Source of the DNA: a virus
Lineage: Duplodnaviria; Caudoviricetes
Virus record (IMG/VR): IMGVR_UViG_3300029156_000008
Coordinates: 1-39,683 of that record
DNA: 39,683 nt
Direction: 5' to 3' (one strand)
Shown here: positions 3,225 to 37,631 of the stretch, piece after piece
Layout of the letters: each line of letters starts with the position of its first letter
Numbering within the stretch: position 1 is the first letter of the stretch
The notes under the pieces: model-generated
Told to the model about the DNA's origin: nothing
Database searches by the model: none
Seen by the model: only the letters and a program-made list of their open reading frames with translations
Program-made: the position numbers and the translations under genes

Positions 3225-3382
3225 TGGTTCTCGTAGTGGCGGATGAGCTCGATCAACGCTCCAGCCATCGCATCACGCTCATCCTGTGAGGCGCGGGCGT
3301 AGGACTGGGCTACGTGGTCGAGGTGGACGAACGTGTCCGGCTGAGGGGGGAGGAACAGGACAAGGGCGAGCAGGTGTCTCAT
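3221..3382 (-). CDS. 53-aa protein with hydrophobic N-terminus (not in ORF track)
   Basis: MRHLLALVLFLPPQPDTFVHLDH...YENQ; ATGA overlaps at both ends. Confidence 0.65.
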   Translation of the reverse strand: MRHLLALVLFLPPQPDTFVHLDHVAQSYARASQDERDAMAGALIELIRHYENQ

Positions 3383-3651
3383 TGGGGTTTCGGTTCATGG
3401 TTTCGCTGAGCAACGGCTTTGCATTCGCTCTCGATGCGCTTGCGCCAGTCCGAATACTTCTCGAGGGGAGGAGAGCCTTTGGGGATTGAGGGGCCGTCCC
3501 AGGCAACCTCGATCGCGTCCTCTAGGGCTTTTTCTAGTTCACTGACTCTGCGGCAGAGGGCGAGCATGTATCCGTCCTCGTCCTTGGGCCAAGGCGTCTC
3601 GCCCGAGATCATCCCCTCTGCCCATGTTCGTGTGATCTTCGGTTCGTTCAT
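3379..3651 (-). CDS. Hypothetical phage protein, probable first gene of a leftward operon
   Basis: Preceded by the shared promoter motif; PKITR...LCR similarity to 1252..1788. Confidence 0.7.
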   Translation of the reverse strand: MNEPKITRTWAEGMISGETPWPKDEDGYMLALCRRVSELEKALEDAIEVAWDGPSIPKGSPPLEKYSDWRKRIESECKAVAQRNHEPKPQ

Positions 3652-3697
3652 CCCTCCGAAGCTACCGACCTATCAGAATCCGTGTTGTGGATTCCGG
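3652..3697 (-). promoter_or_regulatory. Leftward promoter/operator, copy 1
   Basis: Plus strand ATCCGTGTTGTGGATTCC at 3678-3695, identical to 6262-6279. CACGGAT starts 33 nt upstream of the ATG; TAGCTT at -13..-8. Confidence 0.65.
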
Positions 3698-3700
3698 GGA

Positions 3701-4174
3701 TTACTGGTCGCTGTAGACCTTCGCTGTTCGCCGTTCCTGCTCGCGCTCTATCTTCTCGAGAATCGCTCCCCTGCGCCTGAGCTCCGCCTCAGCCTCCCGG
3801 AGCCTGACCTGGAGATCCCTGATGTCGGGAATCAGGAGGGTCTCCATCGCCTTCAGGCGTTCGTTCTGGGTCGCATTGAGCGCCGAGACAATTCGGTCGT
3901 GCTCCGCGATCCAGGAGGCGTGTCCCCCGCTCTTGTTCTGGAGGCGTTCGATGTTCTCCCTGAAAGGCTGGGAGCCGAGGGAGACGACCGAGAGGATCAG
4001 GCCAGCGAACATGCCGAGGGTCTTCCAGTCGGTGGACCCGAGCTGGTCCATCTTTCGCTCCAGCCCACGCAGAGCGTCCGTGACGGACTGGAAGGACCGA
4101 TCGACGTTCTTCTCGAAGACTTCGAACTCGTCCCGAGAGATGTAGCTCCGGTCCCTGCGGGGCTGATCTGTCAT
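3701..4174 (-). CDS. Single-pass membrane coiled-coil protein (possibly lysis-related)
   Basis: Coiled coil, hydrophobic WKTLGMFAGLILSVVSLG, coiled coil. Start re-called at 4174 with CATACT at -13..-8. Confidence 0.65.
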   Translation of the reverse strand: MTDQPRRDRSYISRDEFEVFEKNVDRSFQSVTDALRGLERKMDQLGSTDWKTLGMFAGLILSVVSLGSQPFRENIERLQNKSGGHASWIAEHDRIVSALNATQNERLKAMETLLIPDIRDLQVRLREAEAELRRRGAILEKIEREQERRTAKVYSDQ

Positions 4175-4755: not shown

Positions 4756-4863
4756 ATGAAGGTCAGACATCAGACACGCCCGAAGCACAACAAGCCCCGG
4801 CTCAGAGCATCGACCAAGATCAAGAAGCTGGTGAAGCTCCCGAGGCCGAAGGTGGGGAAGTGA
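4756..4863 (+). CDS. 35-aa very basic peptide (not in ORF track)
   Basis: MKVRHQTRPKHNKPRLRASTKIKKLVKLPRPKVGK; TAGGAT at 4742-4747 upstream; ends where the periodic tract begins. Confidence 0.4.
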   Translation: MKVRHQTRPKHNKPRLRASTKIKKLVKLPRPKVGK

Positions 4864-5065
4864 TGGGACGCTGGGAAATGTGCAGATCGGGTGAGGCACG
4901 TCATGCGCCGATGTGACTTGAGCCGTGCCGAGATGGGTTGGCTTGTGTCGAGGCGATGCGGTACGACGTGGGTTGGCTTGATGAGGGGCGGTCTGGAACG
5001 AGATGAGTGGATCGGTTCCGATCTGACTTAGGCAGGTGTGATGTGCTGTGAGTCGAGAAGGCCAG
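4855..5065 (-). repeat. Degenerate 5-nt-period array 2 (candidate guide-like ncRNA)
   Basis: Plus-strand G at 4855, 4860 ... 5065 in 42 of 43 units, with the only miss at 5030; other positions variable. Strand assigned from the adjacent genes. Confidence 0.9.
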
Positions 5066-5498
5066 GACGCTTGTCCTGGTGTGGCTGAAGCAGCGCCTTG
5101 CGCTCCTTCTTGATTGCTAGAATCTGACGGGCTTGCGCCATGCTCAGGTCCGAATGCTCTTGCTTGCGGCCTTCCGAGAGCTGCTTCGTGTCCACGGACA
5201 TCATCCGCCGATGGGCTCGGAGCAAACGTCGGATGCCGCGCTCGAAGGACGCATCGTTGTAGATCGAAGCCTCCTCATCGGTGAGGACGTGGATGGCCCC
5301 TTGGCGGACGCACACCGTCACAGCCTCTCCTCGCGCAGCTAGCTCGACTTCGATCTGCTGCGCGAGGGCCAGGGCCTTCAGTGCGAAGTTCTTGTCGAGT
5401 ACGTCCATCTCGATCGCTTCGGAGACATCCCCCGGAGGGATGATGGACCCCTTCTTCAGCGAATCGAAGTCAAGCGGATACGGGCTGGAGTGGGGCAT
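5028..5498 (-). CDS. 156-aa accessory protein located between the two pentamer arrays
   Basis: Clean ORF with alpha/beta N-half and basic helical C-half; ATG immediately follows array 1. Confidence 0.8.
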   Translation of the reverse strand: MPHSSPYPLDFDSLKKGSIIPPGDVSEAIEMDVLDKNFALKALALAQQIEVELAARGEAVTVCVRQGAIHVLTDEEASIYNDASFERGIRRLLRAHRRMMSVDTKQLSEGRKQEHSDLSMAQARQILAIKKERKALLQPHQDKRPGLLDSQHITPA

Positions 5499-5640
5499 GA
5501 AGTGATGAGTGGAGTAGAGCGGAGACGAAGAGTGCGAATCCGTGATGTTCGGATACGGGTGGGTGGGGGATGGTGTGTGTTGCTAGGGGTCGTGTAGCGT
5601 GGATGCGAACTGTGTAGGCGTGTGTTGCTTCGAGGCGAAT
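5499..5640 (-). repeat. Degenerate 5-nt-period array 1 (candidate guide-like ncRNA)
   Basis: Plus-strand G at 5502, 5507 ... 5637 in 27 of 28 units (miss at 5537); fills the intergenic gap downstream of the RAMP-like gene. Confidence 0.9.
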
Positions 5641-5650
5641 GACAACCTAC

Positions 5651-6235
5651 TCACTTCACGGCGAAAGACTCGACCATGAAGCGACCGTGACGCGGGCGTA
5701 GCGTCCCTAGCCCGCAGTTCTCCCCAGCGTACTCAAGCATCTGCTGGAGAATGTCTGGATCGACGGCCTCCGACTGGAACTTCAGCTCGAAGCTCAGGGA
5801 CCAGTTTGGGAACATCGGCATACAACGAAGGATCTTCGACCCCCGAAGCCCCATCATCCCACTCCACCGGAAACGAGGATCCGCCTGAAGCTCCTTCAGG
5901 TCATCCGGGCCGTCATGCTTGATGACGTGCAGTCCGTCGATAAAGACAGACGCCTTGAAGGTCTTCCCTAGGCGGCGGGACTTCGCGGCATCAACAAGGC
6001 AGGCCTCGATGTTGAGCCCGGGGATGCAGGGCTTCATGTCTTCCGTCAGGTAGAGGCCGCCCTGCCACTCAAGCTCCGCTAGGTCCATCAGGTCTTGATC
6101 GACCTTCTTGCGTCGGGATGTGATCTTCTTGATCTCCTTCACGAGCGGGTCCAGGGGGTTGCTGCATCGGATGTTGTGGGAGACCAGGGGTGAGACGCCC
6201 GTGATCTTCGCTCTGGCTGTTTTGTAGGTGGTCAT
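5651..6235 (-). CDS. Stand-alone RAMP/Cas7-like RNA-binding protein (Vipr-like), 194 aa
   Basis: N-terminal strand KITGVSPLVSH, PCIPGLNIEACLVDAA (RAMP IPGxxxK-type motif), MPMFPNWSLSFEL, and C-terminal Gly-rich loop GLGTLRPRHGRF. Start re-called at ATG 6235. Confidence 0.8.
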   Translation of the reverse strand: MTTYKTARAKITGVSPLVSHNIRCSNPLDPLVKEIKKITSRRKKVDQDLMDLAELEWQGGLYLTEDMKPCIPGLNIEACLVDAAKSRRLGKTFKASVFIDGLHVIKHDGPDDLKELQADPRFRWSGMMGLRGSKILRCMPMFPNWSLSFELKFQSEAVDPDILQQMLEYAGENCGLGTLRPRHGRFMVESFAVK

Positions 6236-6322
6236 CCACCCGTTGATATCAGCCGCCTGAGATCCGTGTTGTGGATTCCCGGAAATCTTGATCGCTGCCA
6301 TCTACAGCTACAAGCTGTAGGG
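6236..6322. promoter_or_regulatory. Divergent promoter region between RAMP-like gene and terL
   Basis: Contains copy 2 of ATCCGTGTTGTGGATTCC (6262-6279), TATCAA at -13..-8 of the RAMP ATG, and hairpin CTACAGC-TACAA-GCTGTAG (6302-6320) before the terL ATG. Confidence 0.6.
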
Positions 6323-7927
6323 ATGAGCGAAGAGGAGCCGAAAGAATACGTCTACCAGCCCAGAGGGGCGGTGTGGGACTTGTACTGGGAGAACCGGGAT
6401 CCGGAGGTCCTGCTGGAGGGACCTGCTGGAACTGGAAAGAGCCGTGGCGCTCTCGAGTACGCCTACATGTGCGCGACGAACTATCCGGGTTGCAGGATCT
6501 TGTTCTTGCGCAACGTCAAGTCAACGCTTGCAGAGTCGATCCTTCCCGAATGGGAAAGCTCTGTTCTGTGGCCTGGCCATCCTGTCTTGGCTGGGTCAGA
6601 GCAGATGATGGAGAACCGCCGCTCCTACACCTTCCCACACGCAAAGGTGATCGGAGACGGGACGTTCCACCCAGACGACAAAGGCAAGGTCTACGAAGGT
6701 GAGACCCACATCGTCCTTGGAGGCCTGGATAAGAACCAGGTCGATAAAACTTATTCGTCGCAATATGATCTCATCATCGTCTTCGAGGCTTTCGAGATCA
6801 CCGAGGACGCCTGGCAGAAGCTGTTCCGAGCCAACCGAAACTGGCATATGCCCTGGCAGCAGATGGTGGCGGACACCAACCCGAACATCGCCAACCACTG
6901 GCTGCACCTCCGAGCGGACAAGCCATATGAGGTCCCGCCTGAGCTCAAGGATCAGCTCGATGTGAGACCCGGTCAGACGATGATGACCAGGCTCGTCTCG
7001 AAGCATAAGGACAACCCCAAGTTCTGGGACCACAAGGAGAAGAAGTGGACCCATGCGGGGGCGAACTACATCGCCAAGCTCCACCGTCTCTCAGGGGCTC
7101 GTAAGGACAACCTCCTTCACGGCAAGTGGACCTCAGTTGAGGGTCTGATCTTCGAGGACTGGAACCGTGGCACGCACGTCATCCATGCGGAGCTGAAGAC
7201 GGAGCATGGTGTTCACAAGCTCTACGTCGAGGACTGGGACGATCCGATCATTCTCACGTGGTTCATCGCTTCGGTGGACTGGGGCTACCACCCGAACCCT
7301 GGGACGGTGCAGGTGTGGGGGATGGACCAGGAGGACCGTCGCTTCCTGGTGGCCGAGATCTACCAGACGAAGAGGCAGTTGGACTGGTGGGCTGACAAGA
7401 TCGCTGATCTCCATGCCCGCTTCGACTTCAAGGCTGTCGTGTGTGATGGCTCGGAGCCCCACAACATCGACGCCCTGAACATGCGGCTGGGGACGTTCCG
7501 GGGTCGAGAGGTCCCGAGCCTGGCTCAGAAGCAGTCCAGGAAGCACAGTTCCCGCACCAGCGGCTGGCAGGCAGGTATCGACCAGATCCGGTTTGGGCTG
7601 AAGTCTCCGGAGGATGGTGTGCCGAGGCTGTTCGTTCTCTCGGATGCTCTGAAGGAGGGTGCGGATCCCGAGCTCCGTGAGTCGGGCAGACCTACGAGCT
7701 TCGCCCAGGAGATGGATCTGTACCGCTACATGCCCAACGAGGACGGGAAGCCGAGGAAGGAGCAGGAGGACCCGAGATGTGATGCTCACGGGATCGACGC
7801 TGCCCGGTATGCCTGGACGTGGGGGTGGAGGAAGGATCTATCACCGAAAGAGCAGAATCAGGCTTACGCTCCCGGCACGTTCGGGGCAGTCTTGGGCCAT
7901 GGAAAGAAACGTCGGGGTGGCAGATAG
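6323..7927 (+). CDS. terL: Terminase large subunit
   Basis: Walker A GPAGTGKS, Walker B-like LIIVFEA, motif C DTNP, nuclease SVDWGY and DAHGIDAARYA; start re-called at ATG 6323. Confidence 0.93.
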   Translation: MSEEEPKEYVYQPRGAVWDLYWENRDPEVLLEGPAGTGKSRGALEYAYMCATNYPGCRILFLRNVKSTLAESILPEWESSVLWPGHPVLAGSEQMMENRRSYTFPHAKVIGDGTFHPDDKGKVYEGETHIVLGGLDKNQVDKTYSSQYDLIIVFEAFEITEDAWQKLFRANRNWHMPWQQMVADTNPNIANHWLHLRADKPYEVPPELKDQLDVRPGQTMMTRLVSKHKDNPKFWDHKEKKWTHAGANYIAKLHRLSGARKDNLLHGKWTSVEGLIFEDWNRGTHVIHAELKTEHGVHKLYVEDWDDPIILTWFIASVDWGYHPNPGTVQVWGMDQEDRRFLVAEIYQTKRQLDWWADKIADLHARFDFKAVVCDGSEPHNIDALNMRLGTFRGREVPSLAQKQSRKHSSRTSGWQAGIDQIRFGLKSPEDGVPRLFVLSDALKEGADPELRESGRPTSFAQEMDLYRYMPNEDGKPRKEQEDPRCDAHGIDAARYAWTWGWRKDLSPKEQNQAYAPGTFGAVLGHGKKRRGGR

Positions 7928-12888: not shown

Positions 12889-14850
12889 ATGCTTTCTCCG
12901 CTTGATCCCCAGGGTCCTCAGATCCAGACTCCCTTCCATGAAGACCAAGAGACCTCCGAAGTCGAAGACAGCTCCGGGCAAGCCCAAGGGATCGAAGGGC
13001 AAGAAGAAGGGGTACTGATCTTGGACGACTCCAAGCGGATCCTGGAGCTCCAGGCGGGCCTGAAAGAGCGGGACAAGCGTCTCTCCAGCCTCGACGGCCA
13101 GCTCGAGGGCTACACCGGTCCGTTCTGGAAGTCGAAGATCGAGGGTTCCACCCCCGGCGGGTACAACCCCGAGAACCACGTCTACGAGTACATCTCGTAC
13201 GTCGTCCCCCAGCTCGCCTACTCCAACCCCCGTGTGGCCATCAAGAGCCGGGTCTACGGGGCCGAGGAAGAGATGACGCTGATGCGCTATCTCATGAATT
13301 CCTGGGTGGCAGACAACGGCTACGGGGAGTTCCTGGACGCCCCAGCCCACGACGTCTGCTTCTCCTGGGCTGTCCTGCTGACCACCCTCGAAGACCACCC
13401 CTATCTCGAGACCGAGGAAGGGTCCGGGGAGTGGGCGAAGGTCGTGAAGGCCCACCGCCTCTCCCAGAGGGACTATGTCCGTGACCCCGACTCCTACACT
13501 AAGGAGGAGGCCCGTTGGGAGGGTCATGCCTGGGAGATGGACCGGGAAGACCTGATCCGCCTCGCCAAGGAGTCCCCCGAGGAAGGCTGGGATCTGGCTG
13601 TGATCAAGGACCTCGGGAACACCGAGGAGACGAACACGGAGAAGAAGAAGGTCACGGACCGTGACGTCATCCGCTGCTACGACATGTGGTGGAAGAACGA
13701 GGTCCTGGAGGCCGAGGAAGGGGAGGAGCCCCTGACCCAGGAAAACGGCTTCCATGGGGTGATCCACACCTATGCCGCCTGCGACAGTGATGACGGGGTG
13801 ACGATGGTGGAGGTTCGTAACCCCAGAGCCTTCTACGGCCCTCCCTGGGGGATGTACTCCTTCGGGTCGATCCACTACGTCCCCGACGACACCTGGGGCC
13901 TCAGCCCCCTGATCGCGGTCGAGGGTCAGATCCGTGACCTGAACATGCACGCTCGGAACACCTCCAAGCGTGCAGCCCGGCGTAAGCGTCCGGTCTTCGT
14001 GGACGAGAGCATGGAGGGGGCTCTTGCCGAGAAGCTCCAGGACGCCCGGGATGATGAGGTGATCGGGATCGCAGGCTTCGATTCTTCGAAGATCTACGGG
14101 ACCGAGATCGGTGGCATCACAGACCAGGACCTGACCTATGGCGAGCTCGCAAGGAACCGGCTGGAGCGGGTCTCAGGCCTCACGGAGCAGCAGAGAGGCC
14201 AGGCTGGCGCGGCTGATTCGGCAACGGAAGCGGCAATTGCGAAGGAAGGCGGGGATATCCGCCTCGAGTACACGAAGCTCCAGTTCCAGCGTTTGGTCAG
14301 GAAGCAGCTCAAGACGGTCGCCTGGTACTACCACCACGACGAGGACACCCGGCACGTGGTCTCTCCGGAGGCTGCTGAGGAGCTTGGTATCCCGCTTCTC
14401 CCCGGACAGTCGCTGACGATCGAGGGTGGCAACCCCAGGATCCCCTTCGATCTTCTCGGGATCGAGATCGAGCCGCTGTCGATGGAGCGGACGACGACGG
14501 CCTCCCAGCAGCGCAAGGGTCAGGAGTTGGTCCAGACGGTGATCAGCATTGGTCAGGCGATGTTGCAGATGCCCTACATCCAGTGGGGCGATCTCTTGGA
14601 CATCGTCGGGGAATCTCATAACGTCCCGCGCATGGGGGAGTTGTTCAACATGGAGACCCTGTCGCAGTTCGTGCAGATCCAGCAGGAGCTTGGTCAGGCG
14701 AACCCTCAGGCGCAGATCTCCCAGAACGCTCAACCAAAGTCGAGCCAGGGGCTCAACCAGAGCCCGGCCAACCAGGTCATCAGCCAGAGCCCCTTCAACG
14801 GGTTCTCTGAGGGCCAGACCAACAAGCAACAGACGATCGGGGCAAAATGA
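12889..14850 (+). CDS. Portal (head-tail connector) protein
   Basis: About 650 aa; RLERVSGLTEQQRG...SATEA motif typical of podoviral portals; Gln-rich C-terminus; precedes scaffold and capsid. Start at 12889 or GTG 12859. Confidence 0.85.
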   Translation: MLSPLDPQGPQIQTPFHEDQETSEVEDSSGQAQGIEGQEEGVLILDDSKRILELQAGLKERDKRLSSLDGQLEGYTGPFWKSKIEGSTPGGYNPENHVYEYISYVVPQLAYSNPRVAIKSRVYGAEEEMTLMRYLMNSWVADNGYGEFLDAPAHDVCFSWAVLLTTLEDHPYLETEEGSGEWAKVVKAHRLSQRDYVRDPDSYTKEEARWEGHAWEMDREDLIRLAKESPEEGWDLAVIKDLGNTEETNTEKKKVTDRDVIRCYDMWWKNEVLEAEEGEEPLTQENGFHGVIHTYAACDSDDGVTMVEVRNPRAFYGPPWGMYSFGSIHYVPDDTWGLSPLIAVEGQIRDLNMHARNTSKRAARRKRPVFVDESMEGALAEKLQDARDDEVIGIAGFDSSKIYGTEIGGITDQDLTYGELARNRLERVSGLTEQQRGQAGAADSATEAAIAKEGGDIRLEYTKLQFQRLVRKQLKTVAWYYHHDEDTRHVVSPEAAEELGIPLLPGQSLTIEGGNPRIPFDLLGIEIEPLSMERTTTASQQRKGQELVQTVISIGQAMLQMPYIQWGDLLDIVGESHNVPRMGELFNMETLSQFVQIQQELGQANPQAQISQNAQPKSSQGLNQSPANQVISQSPFNGFSEGQTNKQQTIGAK

Positions 14851-15218
14851 AATTCCGACCCAGGGACAACAACGTCCTCCTGCGCATCAAGGACTCGGAC
14901 CAGAACCAGACCACGAAGCTGGTGCTCCCCTACGGGGTGTCCACCATCGGGGGTACGATCGCCACGGTGGTCGAGACAGGTCCTGGATCGGTCTACGAGG
15001 ACGGTGAGCGCTCGGACCACTGTGTTTCGGACCTGAAGCCGGGGATGAAGGTCCTGATCCCCCAGCCTCCGGACTCGATCGTCTTCACAGGCCGCAAGGA
15101 AGACAAGCTGACCTGGATCGGGGCTGAAGAGATCGTTGCTGAGGTCTTCCTGGACCAGCGTTACACCTGGGAGGACGCGGAAGTCCCCCTCCCCGAGCCC
15201 CGACTGATCGAAGCATGA
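14847..15218 (+). CDS. groES: GroES-like co-chaperonin
   Basis: MKFRPRDNNVLLRI, mobile-loop-like TTKLVLP, ATVVETGPG and LKPGMKVLI match the Cpn10 pattern. Confidence 0.8.
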   Translation: MKFRPRDNNVLLRIKDSDQNQTTKLVLPYGVSTIGGTIATVVETGPGSVYEDGERSDHCVSDLKPGMKVLIPQPPDSIVFTGRKEDKLTWIGAEEIVAEVFLDQRYTWEDAEVPLPEPRLIEA

Positions 15219-24700: not shown

Positions 24701-25743
24701 GAGCTGTACCTTCGAGTCTTCCTGGATGGGCGATTGGAGCCCAGTCCGCTGCGAACACGGGGGAGGGCTTGCAGAAGCAAGCTCTCCGTGAGCAGGCGTT
24801 GGCCCAGCGTGGCCAGGAGGAGCAGCGCCGCCAGCAGCAGTATCAGTTTGCTGTCCAGCAGGCCCAGCAGAAGTTCCAGGCTGAGGAAGCGGAGCGCCAA
24901 GCCCAGCTCGGCCAGGCTCAGGATGCTCTAGGCCAGCAGCGTGACCAGCTCTTCGCAGAGATGCAGGGTGGTCCTGCGACGGTGCAGCAGGACGAGAAGC
25001 TCCGTCAGCTCGAAGGGATCGCCAAGAACCTGACCCCGGAGAACGCGGAGCAGCTCATCGGTGAGTTCGAGAAGATGGAGCTTAGGGACAAGACGACTCA
25101 GGCTTTCCAGTCTGTTGGGCAGGAGGTGATGAGTCAGGTCGAGGGTGGTGCGATCGAGGATCCCAAGACCCAGCAGGAGCTTCAGGCTCTCCAGCAGCAG
25201 GCTGATCAGTTTGCTCAGATGACTGGGGCTGGGGCTTTCGATAGGACCCCCCAGCAGGCAGCCCGGATGATCGAGGGGGTGATGGAGAAGAAGGACCAGA
25301 TCCTCAACGAGCATGTGGATCGCAAGAGCAAGCAGATGGACATCGAGAAGTCTGTTCAGACCTTCGACGCTCGCCTGGCTCAGGTCGCTCCGGGCAGTCC
25401 CAAGTTCCAGCGACTTTCAAGGATCCGGGAAGAGGTGGTCCTGGGCAGGATGACTCCGAAGGAGGCTGGGAAAATGCTGGTAGCGTCTGAGTTCGACCTG
25501 ACGGACAAGGACATGGAGGAGGCGAAGGAGATGGCCTTCAGGCAAGCTCTCGAGGAAGGCGGCTTCCTGGGTCCGATCCAGGCGGCAGCGAAGCAGGCGA
25601 TGGGGTCAGCTCCGCAGGGTCCGGACACCTCGGGCCTCCAGCAGGTCTTGGCGAGCGGTGATCGTGACGGATTTATCCGTATGTCCGAGGAGATGGGTCT
25701 GAGTGTCGAGGAGATCCGGGAGCTGATCAGTGGTGCAAGGTGA
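24697..25743 (+). CDS. Internal virion/DNA ejection protein (medium)
   Basis: Gln-rich coiled coil; second of three. Confidence 0.7.
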   Translation: MRAVPSSLPGWAIGAQSAANTGEGLQKQALREQALAQRGQEEQRRQQQYQFAVQQAQQKFQAEEAERQAQLGQAQDALGQQRDQLFAEMQGGPATVQQDEKLRQLEGIAKNLTPENAEQLIGEFEKMELRDKTTQAFQSVGQEVMSQVEGGAIEDPKTQQELQALQQQADQFAQMTGAGAFDRTPQQAARMIEGVMEKKDQILNEHVDRKSKQMDIEKSVQTFDARLAQVAPGSPKFQRLSRIREEVVLGRMTPKEAGKMLVASEFDLTDKDMEEAKEMAFRQALEEGGFLGPIQAAAKQAMGSAPQGPDTSGLQQVLASGDRDGFIRMSEEMGLSVEEIRELISGAR

Positions 25744-28700
25744 CTATGGAGCCCTGTTTGACGAGCTGAGGGGGAAGCCGAAGGTTGGCAACGACTATGG
25801 AGCCCTGTTTGACGAGCTGAGGGGGAAGCCGAAGGTTGGCAACGACTACGGGGCTTTGTTCGATGAGCTGGCCGGGAAGGCCCAGCCTCAGCAATTCGCT
25901 GAGGGCCCTTATGAAGAGGGTTTCAACGTCGAGTTCGCCCCCCAGGCAGACCAGTACGGCCTCGGCTTCGATCAGGCGACGGAGCTCGGACGCGCCCAGG
26001 CGGGCCAGGAGAGGGCAGACCTGGTCAATCAGGCCACAGGCGCGGCCCTCACAGCCCTCCGTCCTGCCGGGCTGATGAACAGGGGCCTCGCACTCGGCAC
26101 AGGATTGGCTCTAGGAGGGTTTGAGACCGCTACGGGGGCTGAACGCGGGTTCCTGACAGATGAGCGTCTGGAGAAGTACAGGGCGTCTCAGGGGCCTGCT
26201 CCGAGAAACAAGCTGGAGCAGACAATCGAGACGATCGGAGCCCAGCTCCCGAAGATGGCCCTCGGCACAGTCTCCTTACCTGCAACGGGCGTCCTGGGGA
26301 TGCTGGAGCTGGGCCAAGCGAACTATCTCGACACGCTTGAGGCCACGGGAGACAAGGATCAGGCCGAGAAGGTCTTCTGGGCCTCGTCTCCCCTGGGTCT
26401 CTCGGAGATGCTCCTTCCCGGTCTCTCGAGGCTCCCTGCCATGAAGCCCATCCTGGGTCGGCTGGGGCAGATCATGGCGAGGGCTCAGTCCAGCGGGAAG
26501 CTGGGTCGCGCCGGGCTCGGAGCCTTGACGGAGGGGCTCCAGGAGGGTGGGGAGACCTTCGCCTCCAACGTCATCGCGGATCACATGACCACCGAGGACC
26601 GGGACTGGCTCCAGGGGGTGGTGGAGAACACGGAGATGGGCGGCTATGTCGGAGGGGTCCTGAATCTGATCTTCCCGGCCCTGACGAAGCGGGTAAAGGG
26701 CGGGACCCAGCCTCCGGGCCCGTTAGGTACGGAGACCGATGCCCCGCCCCCGTCCAGCCCCACCGTGGGGTCGGACATCCAGTCCGGACAGGCTACCACG
26801 GAGCTGGAAGCCTCACTGGAGAACACCGCCATCCAGCGTGAGCGGAAACTAAAAGGATCTGAGGACGCTTATAATTCCACTTTTGAAAAGACGGAGGACC
26901 CCGTCTACGAAGCTGCCGTAGAGCGGGAGATGGCTAAGGGCATCGGCTTCAAGGCTGCTGACAAGATCGCCAGGGAGGAGTCCTCCGAGGCCTTCAGGCA
27001 GGCGGACATCGAGCGTGCCCGTAAGGAGGGAGCTCTGTTCCCCGAGGAGCTGACATCCATCCCGGAGATCCAGGCTCCGAAGGAGAAGGGTGGTGGAGCC
27101 AAGGCCATCCTCCCCGAGACTCCCCAGACCGCCCCGGTCTTCGATGATCCTGAGTTCACGGCCATCTACGAGACCGAGCTCGCGAAAGGTGATGGGCACA
27201 AGGCCGCCCTCGACCGTGCGCTTGCTCAGGCGGACGAAACGCTCGTTCCGAAGAGGGTCCGCGAAGACCTCCTGAAGCGAGGCTCTCTGTATCCGGAAAT
27301 CGAGGCTCAGGACACGATTGCGGATCAGGCAGAGAACCCGGTCAAGGCTCCGGACAAGCTCACCAACACCTTCGAGGTGCTGGACGAGGACGGGAACCCG
27401 ACAGGGGAGACGCGAACCGAGCGGGTGCTGGCTGATTCCCCGATCGCTCGGGTGCAACGAGCCGCACCCATCGTCGATCCCAAGGCCCCCTTCGCCGCTT
27501 ACCGAGTGAGCAAGGTCGGCAAGAAGAAGTCCATGTCGGCCTTCCTGGACTCCACGATCACCCCCGAGGATGTGGGTGCGGAGTCGGTCCAGGCCTTCCC
27601 CCCGCCTCTCAAGACGCTCCTGGGTCACTTCAAGAACCCCAAGGAAGCGAAGCTCCCGCCCAAGACCAAGGTCCCTTCGGTCAAGTCGAAGCATCCCACG
27701 ATGGAACTCCTGGATGGGTGGCTGGGGGATCGCCAGCTAGCTGACCAGGCCTACGAGATCGACGCCTCGAACAAGGAGAAGACGCTCTCGAACTTGCTCT
27801 CATCGGACGGCTTCAAGGGCAAGAAGGCGGTGCAGCAGGAGATCGCCGCCGCGATGCACCTCTACATCGACACCAAGGACAACTTCGATGCGGAGTACGC
27901 GAAGTTTGGCGAGAAGCTCACCCCAAGGCAGCAGCGCATCGTCAAGCGGATGCAGTCACTCTCCCCGGAGCTGAAGGCTTTCGCGGACCAGATTGCAGAG
28001 GAGAACAAGGCCTTCGGTGAGTTCTCGAAGGACAAGGGTGTGATCGAGAACGTGCGGGAGAACTACACCGCCCGCCTTTGGAAGCCCGACGCGAAGGGTC
28101 CGAAGGCTGCGAAGCACGGATCCTTCACCCAGAGCACGGGTCGTGCCCGCAGGCGAACCCTCTCCTCGATCCTGGAGGGGTGGGCTGAAGGGAAGGAGCT
28201 TGCAGTCGAGAGCGTGATCAATGCCCAGCTTCTCGCTCGCCAGCAAGTGGCTCAGGTCATCCACGACCGCAACCTGATTGAGGTGGGCAAGAAGTCTGGC
28301 ATGTTCACGGACAAGCCAGAGGAGGGCTATGCCCAGGTGGAGCACCCGAACTTCCAGCACTGGAAGTATTCAGGCAAGGGAGAGAATCTCGATACGTTCG
28401 GTAAGGGTGTGTTCGGAACGGAGGACGGAGCGATCCTGGAGCGTGTCCCGCTCTATGCCCCGGAGAAGCTGGCTGAGAGGCTCAACAACATCCTCGGCAA
28501 GAGTCGCCTCAAGGCCGAGACGATCACGAAGTACAACGCTCTGGCGAAGCAGACGTTGCTCTTCACGTCCCTGTTCCACCACCAGGCCTTCATCCGCTCC
28601 TTCACGGGCGGCACGCCGGGGTTCTTCTCGAACAAGACTTACAACATCCCCAAGCACTACAAGCAGGGGATGAAGGCGATCGAGGAGTTCACACCTGAGC

Positions 28701-35922: not shown

Positions 35923-36396
35923 ATGGCTAGACCTAGAAATGAGTGGCGTGACGCCGAGGAGTACCTCCTTGAGCGTTGTGAAGAAGACGAGAAAACCGGC
36001 TGCTGGGAGTGGATCGCTGGTCGATCCGGCTGTGGCTATGGAGCTGTGATCTTCCCAGGAGAGAATCGAGCCCACCGGGCGGCTTACAAGGCCTGGAGGG
36101 GGCCTATCCCGAAGGGGATGCAGGTTCGGCACGCCTGCGATAACAAGATCTGCATCAATCCAGATCATCTGCTCGTGGGGTCGTGTGCCGACAACGTGAG
36201 GGATGCCCAGGACCGTGGGCTAAACCCATCCGGAGAGAAGCATGGGATGGCGAAGCTGAACGCTCATGCCGTCTCCATGATCCGAAAGCACTATTCCGAG
36301 GGTCGATTCAACCAACGTGAGCTTGGGGAGATCTTTGGGGTCTCTCAGCTCAATGTGAGCCGAATCGTCCGCAACAAGACTTGGACCGATGCCTGA
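35923..36396 (+). CDS. HNH homing endonuclease with C-terminal HTH
   Basis: GCWEW, GYG, AHRAAY, VRHACDNKICINPDHL, DN, GEKHGMAKL and QRELGEIFGVSQ. Confidence 0.9.
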   Translation: MARPRNEWRDAEEYLLERCEEDEKTGCWEWIAGRSGCGYGAVIFPGENRAHRAAYKAWRGPIPKGMQVRHACDNKICINPDHLLVGSCADNVRDAQDRGLNPSGEKHGMAKLNAHAVSMIRKHYSEGRFNQRELGEIFGVSQLNVSRIVRNKTWTDA

Positions 36397-37631
36397 TGCT
36401 GATCGCCCTGCTGCTCGCCGCTCTCCTGGCCAAGCCTGACGTCCTGATCATCGTTCTGGATGATGTGGGATGGACGGACTTCCAGGCTGTTGATACCCCC
36501 AACCTCGATGAGCTCGCTGACGAGGGAGTCCTCTTCCACCGAGCTTACGCTCACCCCTGGTGTCGTCCGACGCGGGCAGCCTTGCTCTTCTCTGTCTGGG
36601 ATGGGGCGAGCTACGGGAACCTCTGCAAGCTCCCGACGGCCTTCGCTCTCCCTGAGATCGACAGCCTCCCTTCGATTCTCTCGGGCTATTCCACGGGCCT
36701 CTTTGGGAAGTGGCACCTGGGGAACAACAACAACATCGCGTTCACGGCCTGGGAGACGCCCCAGCTCCATGGGTTCGACACTTGGAGGGCGGGGACGCCG
36801 GACAACATCTTCTCCCAGGCCTGCAACTCGCTGGACTACACGGACTGGAAGCGGGTCGATGACGGTGTCGTGACTCCCGGCGTCTCGACCTACAACACGA
36901 TCGCTGTCCGTGATGCGTGGTGTGATTGGTGGACGAACACTCCTGGGGAGAAGATGGCTGTGGTTGCCTACCAGGCGGCTCACGAGCCCTTCCACATCCC
37001 CCCCTCCAGCATCCTCCCTTCGTCCTACACCCCTCCCGCTCAGGTCGGTCCTCGAGAGCAGTACGAGGCGATGGTCCAGAGTTTGGACTTCGTCTTGGGT
37101 GAGATGTTGGAGGTTGTGGACAACGACACCTGGGTCTTTGTTTTTGGGGATAACGGCACGCCCTACAACGCCCTGGCCTCACCTTCCCAGGACCCCTTGA
37201 AGGTGAAGCACACGACCTTTGAACAGGGAGTCCACGTCCCCTTGGTAGTTCGAGGTCCTGGTGCAATCCCTGGGGACTACTTCGGGCCGGTGAACGTGGC
37301 AGACATCATGCCCACGGTCTCGGGCCTGACGATGTCCCTGATGCCTGCCGACAGGGACGGGATCTCCTTCTATGGGGCTCTGATCGGGATGGACTCCCCC
37401 AGGGACTGGACCTACGTCCACACGAAGCGAGGCAATCCCAAGGGTGGGCTTCCTGGGTCTGACGAGGCGGTGATCGAGGAGCGTTGGAAGCTCCGTGAGT
37501 TCGATGGCACTCAGACGCTCTACGATCTCCTGTACGACCCTTTGGAGGAGACTCCCCTGGATCCCGATGACCCGGTCTATGCCGTCCATGTGACGCGGCT
37601 CAGAGCGCTCCTGGCGCAGGCTAGGTCATGA
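36396..37631 (+). CDS. Formylglycine-dependent (S1) sulfatase with signal peptide
   Basis: PDVLIIVLDDVG, TPNLD, CRPTR (CxPxR), GKWHLG, HEPFH, GDNG, K-x-T-x-FEQGVHVP; start at ATG 36396 via TGATG. Confidence 0.92.
   Translation: MLIALLLAALLAKPDVLIIVLDDVGWTDFQAVDTPNLDELADEGVLFHRAYAHPWCRPTRAALLFSVWDGASYGNLCKLPTAFALPEIDSLPSILSGYSTGLFGKWHLGNNNNIAFTAWETPQLHGFDTWRAGTPDNIFSQACNSLDYTDWKRVDDGVVTPGVSTYNTIAVRDAWCDWWTNTPGEKMAVVAYQAAHEPFHIPPSSILPSSYTPPAQVGPREQYEAMVQSLDFVLGEMLEVVDNDTWVFVFGDNGTPYNALASPSQDPLKVKHTTFEQGVHVPLVVRGPGAIPGDYFGPVNVADIMPTVSGLTMSLMPADRDGISFYGALIGMDSPRDWTYVHTKRGNPKGGLPGSDEAVIEERWKLREFDGTQTLYDLLYDPLEETPLDPDDPVYAVHVTRLRALLAQARS

Follow-up and report, generated by a model that had tools for sequence, protein, structure and literature searches.

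A phage VIPR locus with a C-anchored pentamer array, predicted to guide silencing of a satellite excisionase and a sibling terminase

INTRODUCTION

The closest described relatives of the locus analysed here are the VIPR type II systems of SUSP1 and a P. fulva prophage, in which phage-borne vipr and vap genes accompany period-5 arrays of 9-16 repeats that end in an invariant structured 3′ tail. The canonical SUSP1-like repeat is GGY/NN. According to the available text of three reports, the NN dinucleotides are read with a skip of one base that falls on the wobble position of the target (10.64898/2026.04.26.720920, 10.64898/2026.04.26.720927, 10.64898/2026.10.15.759431). SUSP1 VIPR blocks satellite excision, and the accessible part of that report gives an excision recombinase as its target (10.64898/2026.10.15.759431). 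In the cryo-EM structure of SUSP1 Vipr, as set out in the available text, G1 is read by H17 and D177 and G2 by R138 and W178, while R179 and C173 form a Y3 pocket that excludes purines; the substitutions D177A and R138A each abolish silencing (10.64898/2026.04.26.720927).

Other repeat motifs are in print. They comprise NNNGG, YNNNG and NNNNG (10.64898/2026.04.26.720920), with GAC/NN, CAC/NN, WGT/NN and TGH/NN in the accessible portion of a further report (10.64898/2026.10.21.760802). The available text of the VIPR literature ties no motif of these non-canonical classes to protein residues or to targets. The Cas7/Csm3 backbone of class 1 CRISPR systems, with its crRNA, is alike in the RAMP fold and, presumably, in forming a filament on guide RNA.

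We have analysed a viral DNA of 39,683 nucleotides (the window), a tailed-phage contig with terminase, major head protein and resolvase matches. A first-pass annotation had drawn attention to a run of pentamers behind a RAMP-like gene and suggested a non-coding RNA partner. Here we describe this run as array 1 of a phage VIPR locus. Homology of the vipr and vap genes, the period-5 scaffold and target matches with a one-base wobble skip together lead us to read it as probably a guide RNA, transcribed from the same strand as vipr, that would direct silencing of a satellite excisionase and of the terminase of sibling phages. The VIPR system is known; what looks new is a scaffold in which only a C is fixed, paired with the loss of protein contacts. 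The available text of the VIPR literature has no C-only scaffold, no tie to R138 loss and no terminase or excisionase targets, although published figures and supplements may bear on this.

RESULTS

The locus and its protein

The minus-strand gene order is vipr, array 1, a 156-aa ORF and array 2, and terL (6323-7927) starts divergently from vipr, at 6323. The elements of the locus are as follows.

5651-6235, minus strand: vipr, encoding a 194-aa RAMP protein in which (SUSP1 numbering) R138 is replaced by Met, D177 by Thr and W178 by Leu
5500-5639, minus strand: array 1, 28 in-phase pentamers of the form (C/A)(U/C/A)C-NN, predicted vrRNA(s)
5028-5498, minus strand: vap-like accessory gene, 156 aa
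4853-5062, minus strand: array 2, 42 pentamers on the same scaffold as array 1, with C at position 3 in 41/42
6262-6297, no strand assigned: 36-bp element upstream of vipr, with a second copy at 3678-3713 upstream of a minus-strand ORF (3379-3651)

The RAMP-like gene is a Vipr RAMP by both sequence and fold matches. Its product carries no Pfam name, and aligns with SUSP1 Vipr (PDB 36pp) with an E value of 3.8e-29 over residues 8-191, so that the homology covers nearly the full length. The best fold matches of the predicted model are RAMPs of the Csm3/Cmr/Cas7 type, and the RRM, thumb and G-loop of a Vipr are present. The 156-aa ORF resembles the gene behind vipr in a related locus (phmmer E 2.9e-6) and a profile of genes downstream of vipr in related viral loci (E 1.3e-5, Z=1000). 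By sequence homology, then, the minimal locus includes an adjacent vap, as in VIPR type II, though here the array sits between vipr and vap. Sequence searches of Pfam, PHROG, NCBIfam and PDB gave no match for this ORF; it matches unnamed viral clusters only, and a fold search returned generic helical matches. None of 29 ORFs has a cas Pfam match, and there is no CRISPR-like array among the 20 largest direct-repeat families of a general (not CRISPR-specific) repeat search. In this, and in pairing that is gapped rather than contiguous, the locus differs from class 1 CRISPR.

The two copies of the 36-bp element have 18 bp identical and 83% identity over 36 bp. From its sequence and placement the element is a likely candidate for a shared promoter or operator. 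A sigma-70 promoter consensus was not found, and an Rfam search gave two sub-threshold matches that we take as chance. Within vipr, toward its 5′ end, a low-depth contig of one public run (X1; depth ∼10 versus 800-900) joins at 6177-6206 with differing sequence, and is taken to represent either a minor variant or another, related phage.

Aligned with SUSP1 Vipr, the window protein carries H, T, M, L, R and C at the positions of H17, D177, R138, W178, R179 and C173, respectively, and it retains K33, R39 and K82 of the DNA clamp. The thumb residue R138 is present in 186/193 Vipr homologs and lost in the window Vipr. Five of eight R138-less Viprs form a group (support 0.795 in a FastTree of a subset of the sequences) amid R138-bearing neighbours, and the loss looks derived because the group is nested in this way. 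One member of the lineage, P0009, is 58% identical to the window Vipr and has the same Met and Leu.

The period-5 arrays

The first-pass description of array 1 proved exact. Plus-strand G occupies 27/28 period-5 positions between 5502 and 5637, the sole miss being at 5537, with 20 consecutive in-phase G from 5542, and in 24/28 units a G or T stands two bases further on; the tract fills the gap from the vipr stop (5651) to the next ATG (5498). Over 20,000 dinucleotide-preserving shuffles the best phase never exceeded 23/28. When the window was scanned at periods 4, 5, 7, 8, 10 and 11, array 1 and a second tract alone stood out. Tandem Repeats Finder calls neither tract, in keeping with the annotated view that this is not a microsatellite, and codon structure cannot yield a period of 5, as had also been pointed out. 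Contigs of two public runs cover array 1 with zero differences, these runs being possibly not independent of the window DNA.

The second tract, array 2, has plus-strand G at 38/39 positions in 4857-5051 and gives a signal at period 10 as well. Its first seven units (5028-5062) double as the last vap codons. On the gene strand both arrays finish in an identical 9 nt at the 3′ end. A structured 3′ tail was not found on either, the flanks folding no better than shuffles; VIPR type II has 9-16 repeats and an invariant tail, whereas the window has 28 and 42 in-phase units. One 10-mer occurs in array 1 both at units 3-4 and at units 12-13, and may be a processing site; units 3-4 also match the terminase target described below.

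Position 3 is the fixed element of the scaffold. Over the 70 units, the gene strand has C 68 and T 2 at this position (pyrimidine in 70/70), compared with C 34, A 22, G 9 and T 5 at position 1 and T 29, C 21, A 14 and G 6 at position 2. G lies below the genome background at both position 1 (p 9e-4) and position 2 (p 2e-5), and GG at positions 1-2 occurs in none of the 70. In array 1 itself G is found at position 1 in 1/28 and at position 2 in 3/28, with C at position 3 in 27/28. The annotated register, (C/A)-N-C-N-N, is right, and both N positions decode to real targets. The locus has the intergenic pentamers of VIPR, with a constrained trinucleotide and a variable NN, but it departs from canonical SUSP1-like systems in lacking both the GGY scaffold and R138, D177 and W178. 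It is closer to the non-canonical arrays in having a non-GGY trinucleotide beside a Vipr-like fold, and CAC is the commonest triplet of array 1 (7/28). It differs from these in that only position 3 is fixed, with positions 1-2 degenerate and G-poor.

How do related loci compare? A GGY-based caller found 119 arrays in 36/39 related viral loci, with 115/119 on the vipr strand; among those located downstream, 54/55 are on this strand. In their pooled units position 1 is G in 85%, position 2 is G in 83% and position 3 is C in 82%, both G figures being inflated by the GGY-based caller. One locus, L011, has a 39-unit GGY array (2552-2746 of that locus) opposite the vipr strand and upstream of vipr. 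On this comparative basis the RNA of the window arrays is likely made from the vipr strand, and the gene-sense reading of the first-pass annotation stands as likely. The idea of a non-coding RNA partner is supported too, while the system (VIPR), the skip code and the targets had been left unnamed.

The change of scaffold from GGY to (C/A)(U/C/A)C may be linked to the loss of the G1 and G2 contacts by R138M, D177T and W178L, and on sequence comparison we regard this as suggestive. A distant Vipr, L119 (G299:C35), has lost H17 and D177, with N at both G1 contacts, and kept R138; its arrays are CGC-NN, with G2 kept in 35/36 units and G1 mostly lost. This would be an independent residue-base change. 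L034 is a counter-example, with Q17 and T177 yet G1 in 83% of units. The R138-G2 link is suggestive rather than established because it comes from one locus, no other R138-less locus with DNA having been found. Viral contigs gave none (four distant loci, and 0 from a TerL search), and neither did metagenome contigs. In 401 Planctomycetota genomes there are only four distant Viprs, again with no second R138-less locus, and the five phage/plasmid Vipr loci examined among 137 records all keep R138.

Targets

The segments of the arrays for which targets are predicted, and the near-match in the phage itself, are as follows.

5515-5574, minus strand: units 14-25 of array 1, predicted guide to an excisionase-like HTH_17 gene of Planctomycetota integrase/Prim-Pol elements
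5585-5634, minus strand: units 2-11 of array 1, with the terminase large subunit gene of sibling phages as predicted target
6743-6772, plus strand: site in the phage's own terL that nearly matches units 2-11 (17/20 NN bases), with three mismatches, all central
4863-4907, minus strand: nine array 2 units that may guide to the HTH of an IS1-like transposase (antisense, wobble skip), a weaker case

When the NN dinucleotides of array 1 are joined with one skipped base, an open, codon-like string results. Its 3′ half, which we took to be excisionase-like, was then tested, using a segment chosen by eye from the decoded string. As an exact 10-unit pattern (20 bases, gapped) it has two matches among 185,579 GTDB genomes; since about one is expected by chance on our estimate, the evidence does not lie in the count by itself. 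In both cases the matched gene, read in frame, is an HTH_17/excisionase gene of a Planctomycetota MAG with Prim-Pol next to it, and in one case an integrase as well. Over units 14-25 one of the matches reaches 24/24, the skipped base being the wobble base. With up to three mismatches allowed, six of 401 Planctomycetota genomes matched, including the seed genome, against 0/401 for a reversed control. An excisionase-like gene is the site in five of the six places and the other is chance; inspection by eye showed integrase-like neighbours at two more of the matched places. The length of the skip is clear in a set of 54 non-seed loci (the top 60 of 100 places minus six seeds, chosen by a profile from the first matches). 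Here 18 loci reach at least 18/24 with a skip of 1, compared with 2, 0 and 2 for skips of 0, 2 and 3, and in 150 unit shuffles on the same loci at most four do so. The excisionase pattern had no match in viral contigs. The NN positions of array 1 decode to mobile-element targets with the one-base wobble skip, and as in VIPR type II the target lies in a satellite excision function.

Units 2-11 lead to the terminase. In codon register, 18/22 bases of units 1-11 fit the phage's own terL, a score that 10/400 shuffles also reach, and by itself this match is modest. The guide reads Ala where the own terL has Ser, and AG where it uses TCG. At the protein level, to which the comparison with terminase relatives is confined, Ala is present at the guide residue in 7/8 relatives fetched afterwards, and in one (P0161) 10/10 codons are compatible with units 2-11. 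As DNA, the guide pattern gave a single unrelated match in viral contigs, with no exact terminase target, and 0 in metagenomes; two distant Planctomycetota TerL loci score no higher than 14/22. At 17/20 (85%) the own site exceeds the 80% natural-target threshold of the VIPR paper (10.64898/2026.04.26.720920), a further departure from the canonical pattern, in which there is no self-target at 80% or more of NN bases. Apart from terL there are no self-targets in the window above background with a skip of 1, 0 or 2. With a skip of 3 the apparent matches are the arrays themselves and were rejected. We predict from these comparisons that units 2-11 would act against sibling phages, with escape of the phage itself. 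Of the 28 units of array 1, all but units 1, 12-13 and 26-28 thus fall within one of the two predicted guides.

For array 2 the case for an IS1-like transposase HTH as target is weak to moderate on sequence matching; five of six viral matches fall in one family, without extension beyond the query. These nine units are the only ones in array 2 for which a candidate target was found. The 5′ pattern of array 2 gave 0 matches. Its middle pattern gave 69, mostly in redundant families and none extending, and was rejected as a guide to a target; this indicates that short patterns match multi-member families by chance. Compared with 60 satellite-like loci, array 2 gave nothing above 16/20, and none of these loci has a C-only solo array. 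A GGY-like period-5 run of 16 units was seen in one Planctomycetota region (L095, 11820-11895) near an HTH_17 gene, and is a possible solo vrRNA.

DISCUSSION

Could these features be explained otherwise? That array 1 is chance, a microsatellite or a hidden peptide is scarcely credible. One minus-strand frame across the array is stop-free after the vipr stop codon, but no ORF of at least 60 aa spanning it was found; the shuffles already refute this explanation, and it is also at odds with the presence of a second array, the neighbouring vipr and the targets that array 1 decodes to. A VIPR guide read from the plus strand, as G-(A/G/U)-(G/U/C)-NN (G-D-K-NN), is an unlikely alternative, possibly of the NNNNG class listed in the VIPR paper (10.64898/2026.04.26.720920). 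Position 1 would then be G in 68/70 units and exact GGY would occur in 11/70; H17 is kept, L011 has an inverted array, and the plus strand has a hairpin 3′ of array 2 (z -1.86). Yet a purine would then fall at position 3 in 39/70 units although the residues of the Y pocket look normal, the G1 contact D177 is lost, and the downstream arrays of relatives, all but one, lie on the strand of vipr. By eye, moreover, the 3′ flanks of the two arrays on the plus strand have no sequence in common, and both flanks lie within coding sequence. The NN positions and the targets are identical on either reading; only the strand and the scaffold differ.

We judge it improbable that units 2-11 are directed at the phage's own terminase gene, to time packaging, and not at sibling phages. 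The own site is in codon register and only ∼1.1 kb away, and neither viral contigs nor metagenomes yielded an exact DNA target elsewhere. Against this, all three mismatches fall centrally, the guide agrees with the residue of the relatives and not with the own one, and the VIPR paper reports no self-targets (10.64898/2026.04.26.720920). The chance that the system is decayed, with the G contacts lost, the protein nonfunctional and the arrays drifting, seems slimmer still. It would accord with the silencing defects of SUSP1 D177A and R138A in the available structural report (10.64898/2026.04.26.720927) and with the lack of a 3′ tail. But every unit is in phase with a pyrimidine at position 3, G at positions 1-2 is depleted below background rather than randomised, the vipr and vap ORFs are both intact, the Met and Leu are shared by P0009 at 58% identity, and the 24/24 target match persists.

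The reading of array 1 as a vipr-strand guide suggests a mechanism modelled on SUSP1 VIPR. The array would be transcribed with vipr, from the same strand, and one Vipr protomer would bind each pentamer, burying bases 1-3 and presenting bases 4-5. The retained pyrimidine pocket (R179 and C173) would fix C at position 3. The filament would pair with two of every three target bases to form an R-loop triplex and so block transcription. The own terL would be spared by its three central mismatches, which comprise the Ala-to-Ser change and TCG in place of an AGY serine codon; wobble skipping cannot absorb them.

A broader scenario is possible, though we hold it to be doubtful. The lineage of the window Vipr with P0009, P0113, P0096 and P0012 may have rewritten its RNA-binding code by two to three substitutions, giving C-anchored, G-free guides that are orthogonal to GGY and immune to satellite decoys. 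Tail-less guides placed back to back in one 28-unit RNA might then act against both satellite and kin, with a switch of serine codon family marking self.

The residues said to read G1 and G2 have been lost in just the locus whose units lack these G bases, and this allows the structural model of VIPR to be tested directly. If the link between residue and base holds, residue swaps should switch the guide preference, and an orthogonal pair of Vipr and guide would be useful for multiplexed silencing. The terminase guide suggests how a wobble-skipping guide might attack close kin and spare self. With an excisionase and a sibling-phage terminase as its predicted targets, the window differs from VIPR type II, and through it VIPR conflict now includes probable phages of Planctomycetota along with their satellites. 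Few genes of this phage carry names, and the targets also provide a clue to its host; together with a 43%-identical TerL in 2/391 genomes they make Planctomycetota the likely host phylum.

Elsewhere in the window, a 51-nt tandem repeat (25742-25894), with two identical copies and one diverged, lies at the start of a 1349-aa ORF that has a weak virion RNA polymerase PHROG match. The phage also encodes a Cpn10-like protein (14847-15218) and a sulfatase (36381-37631; E 1.8e-27).
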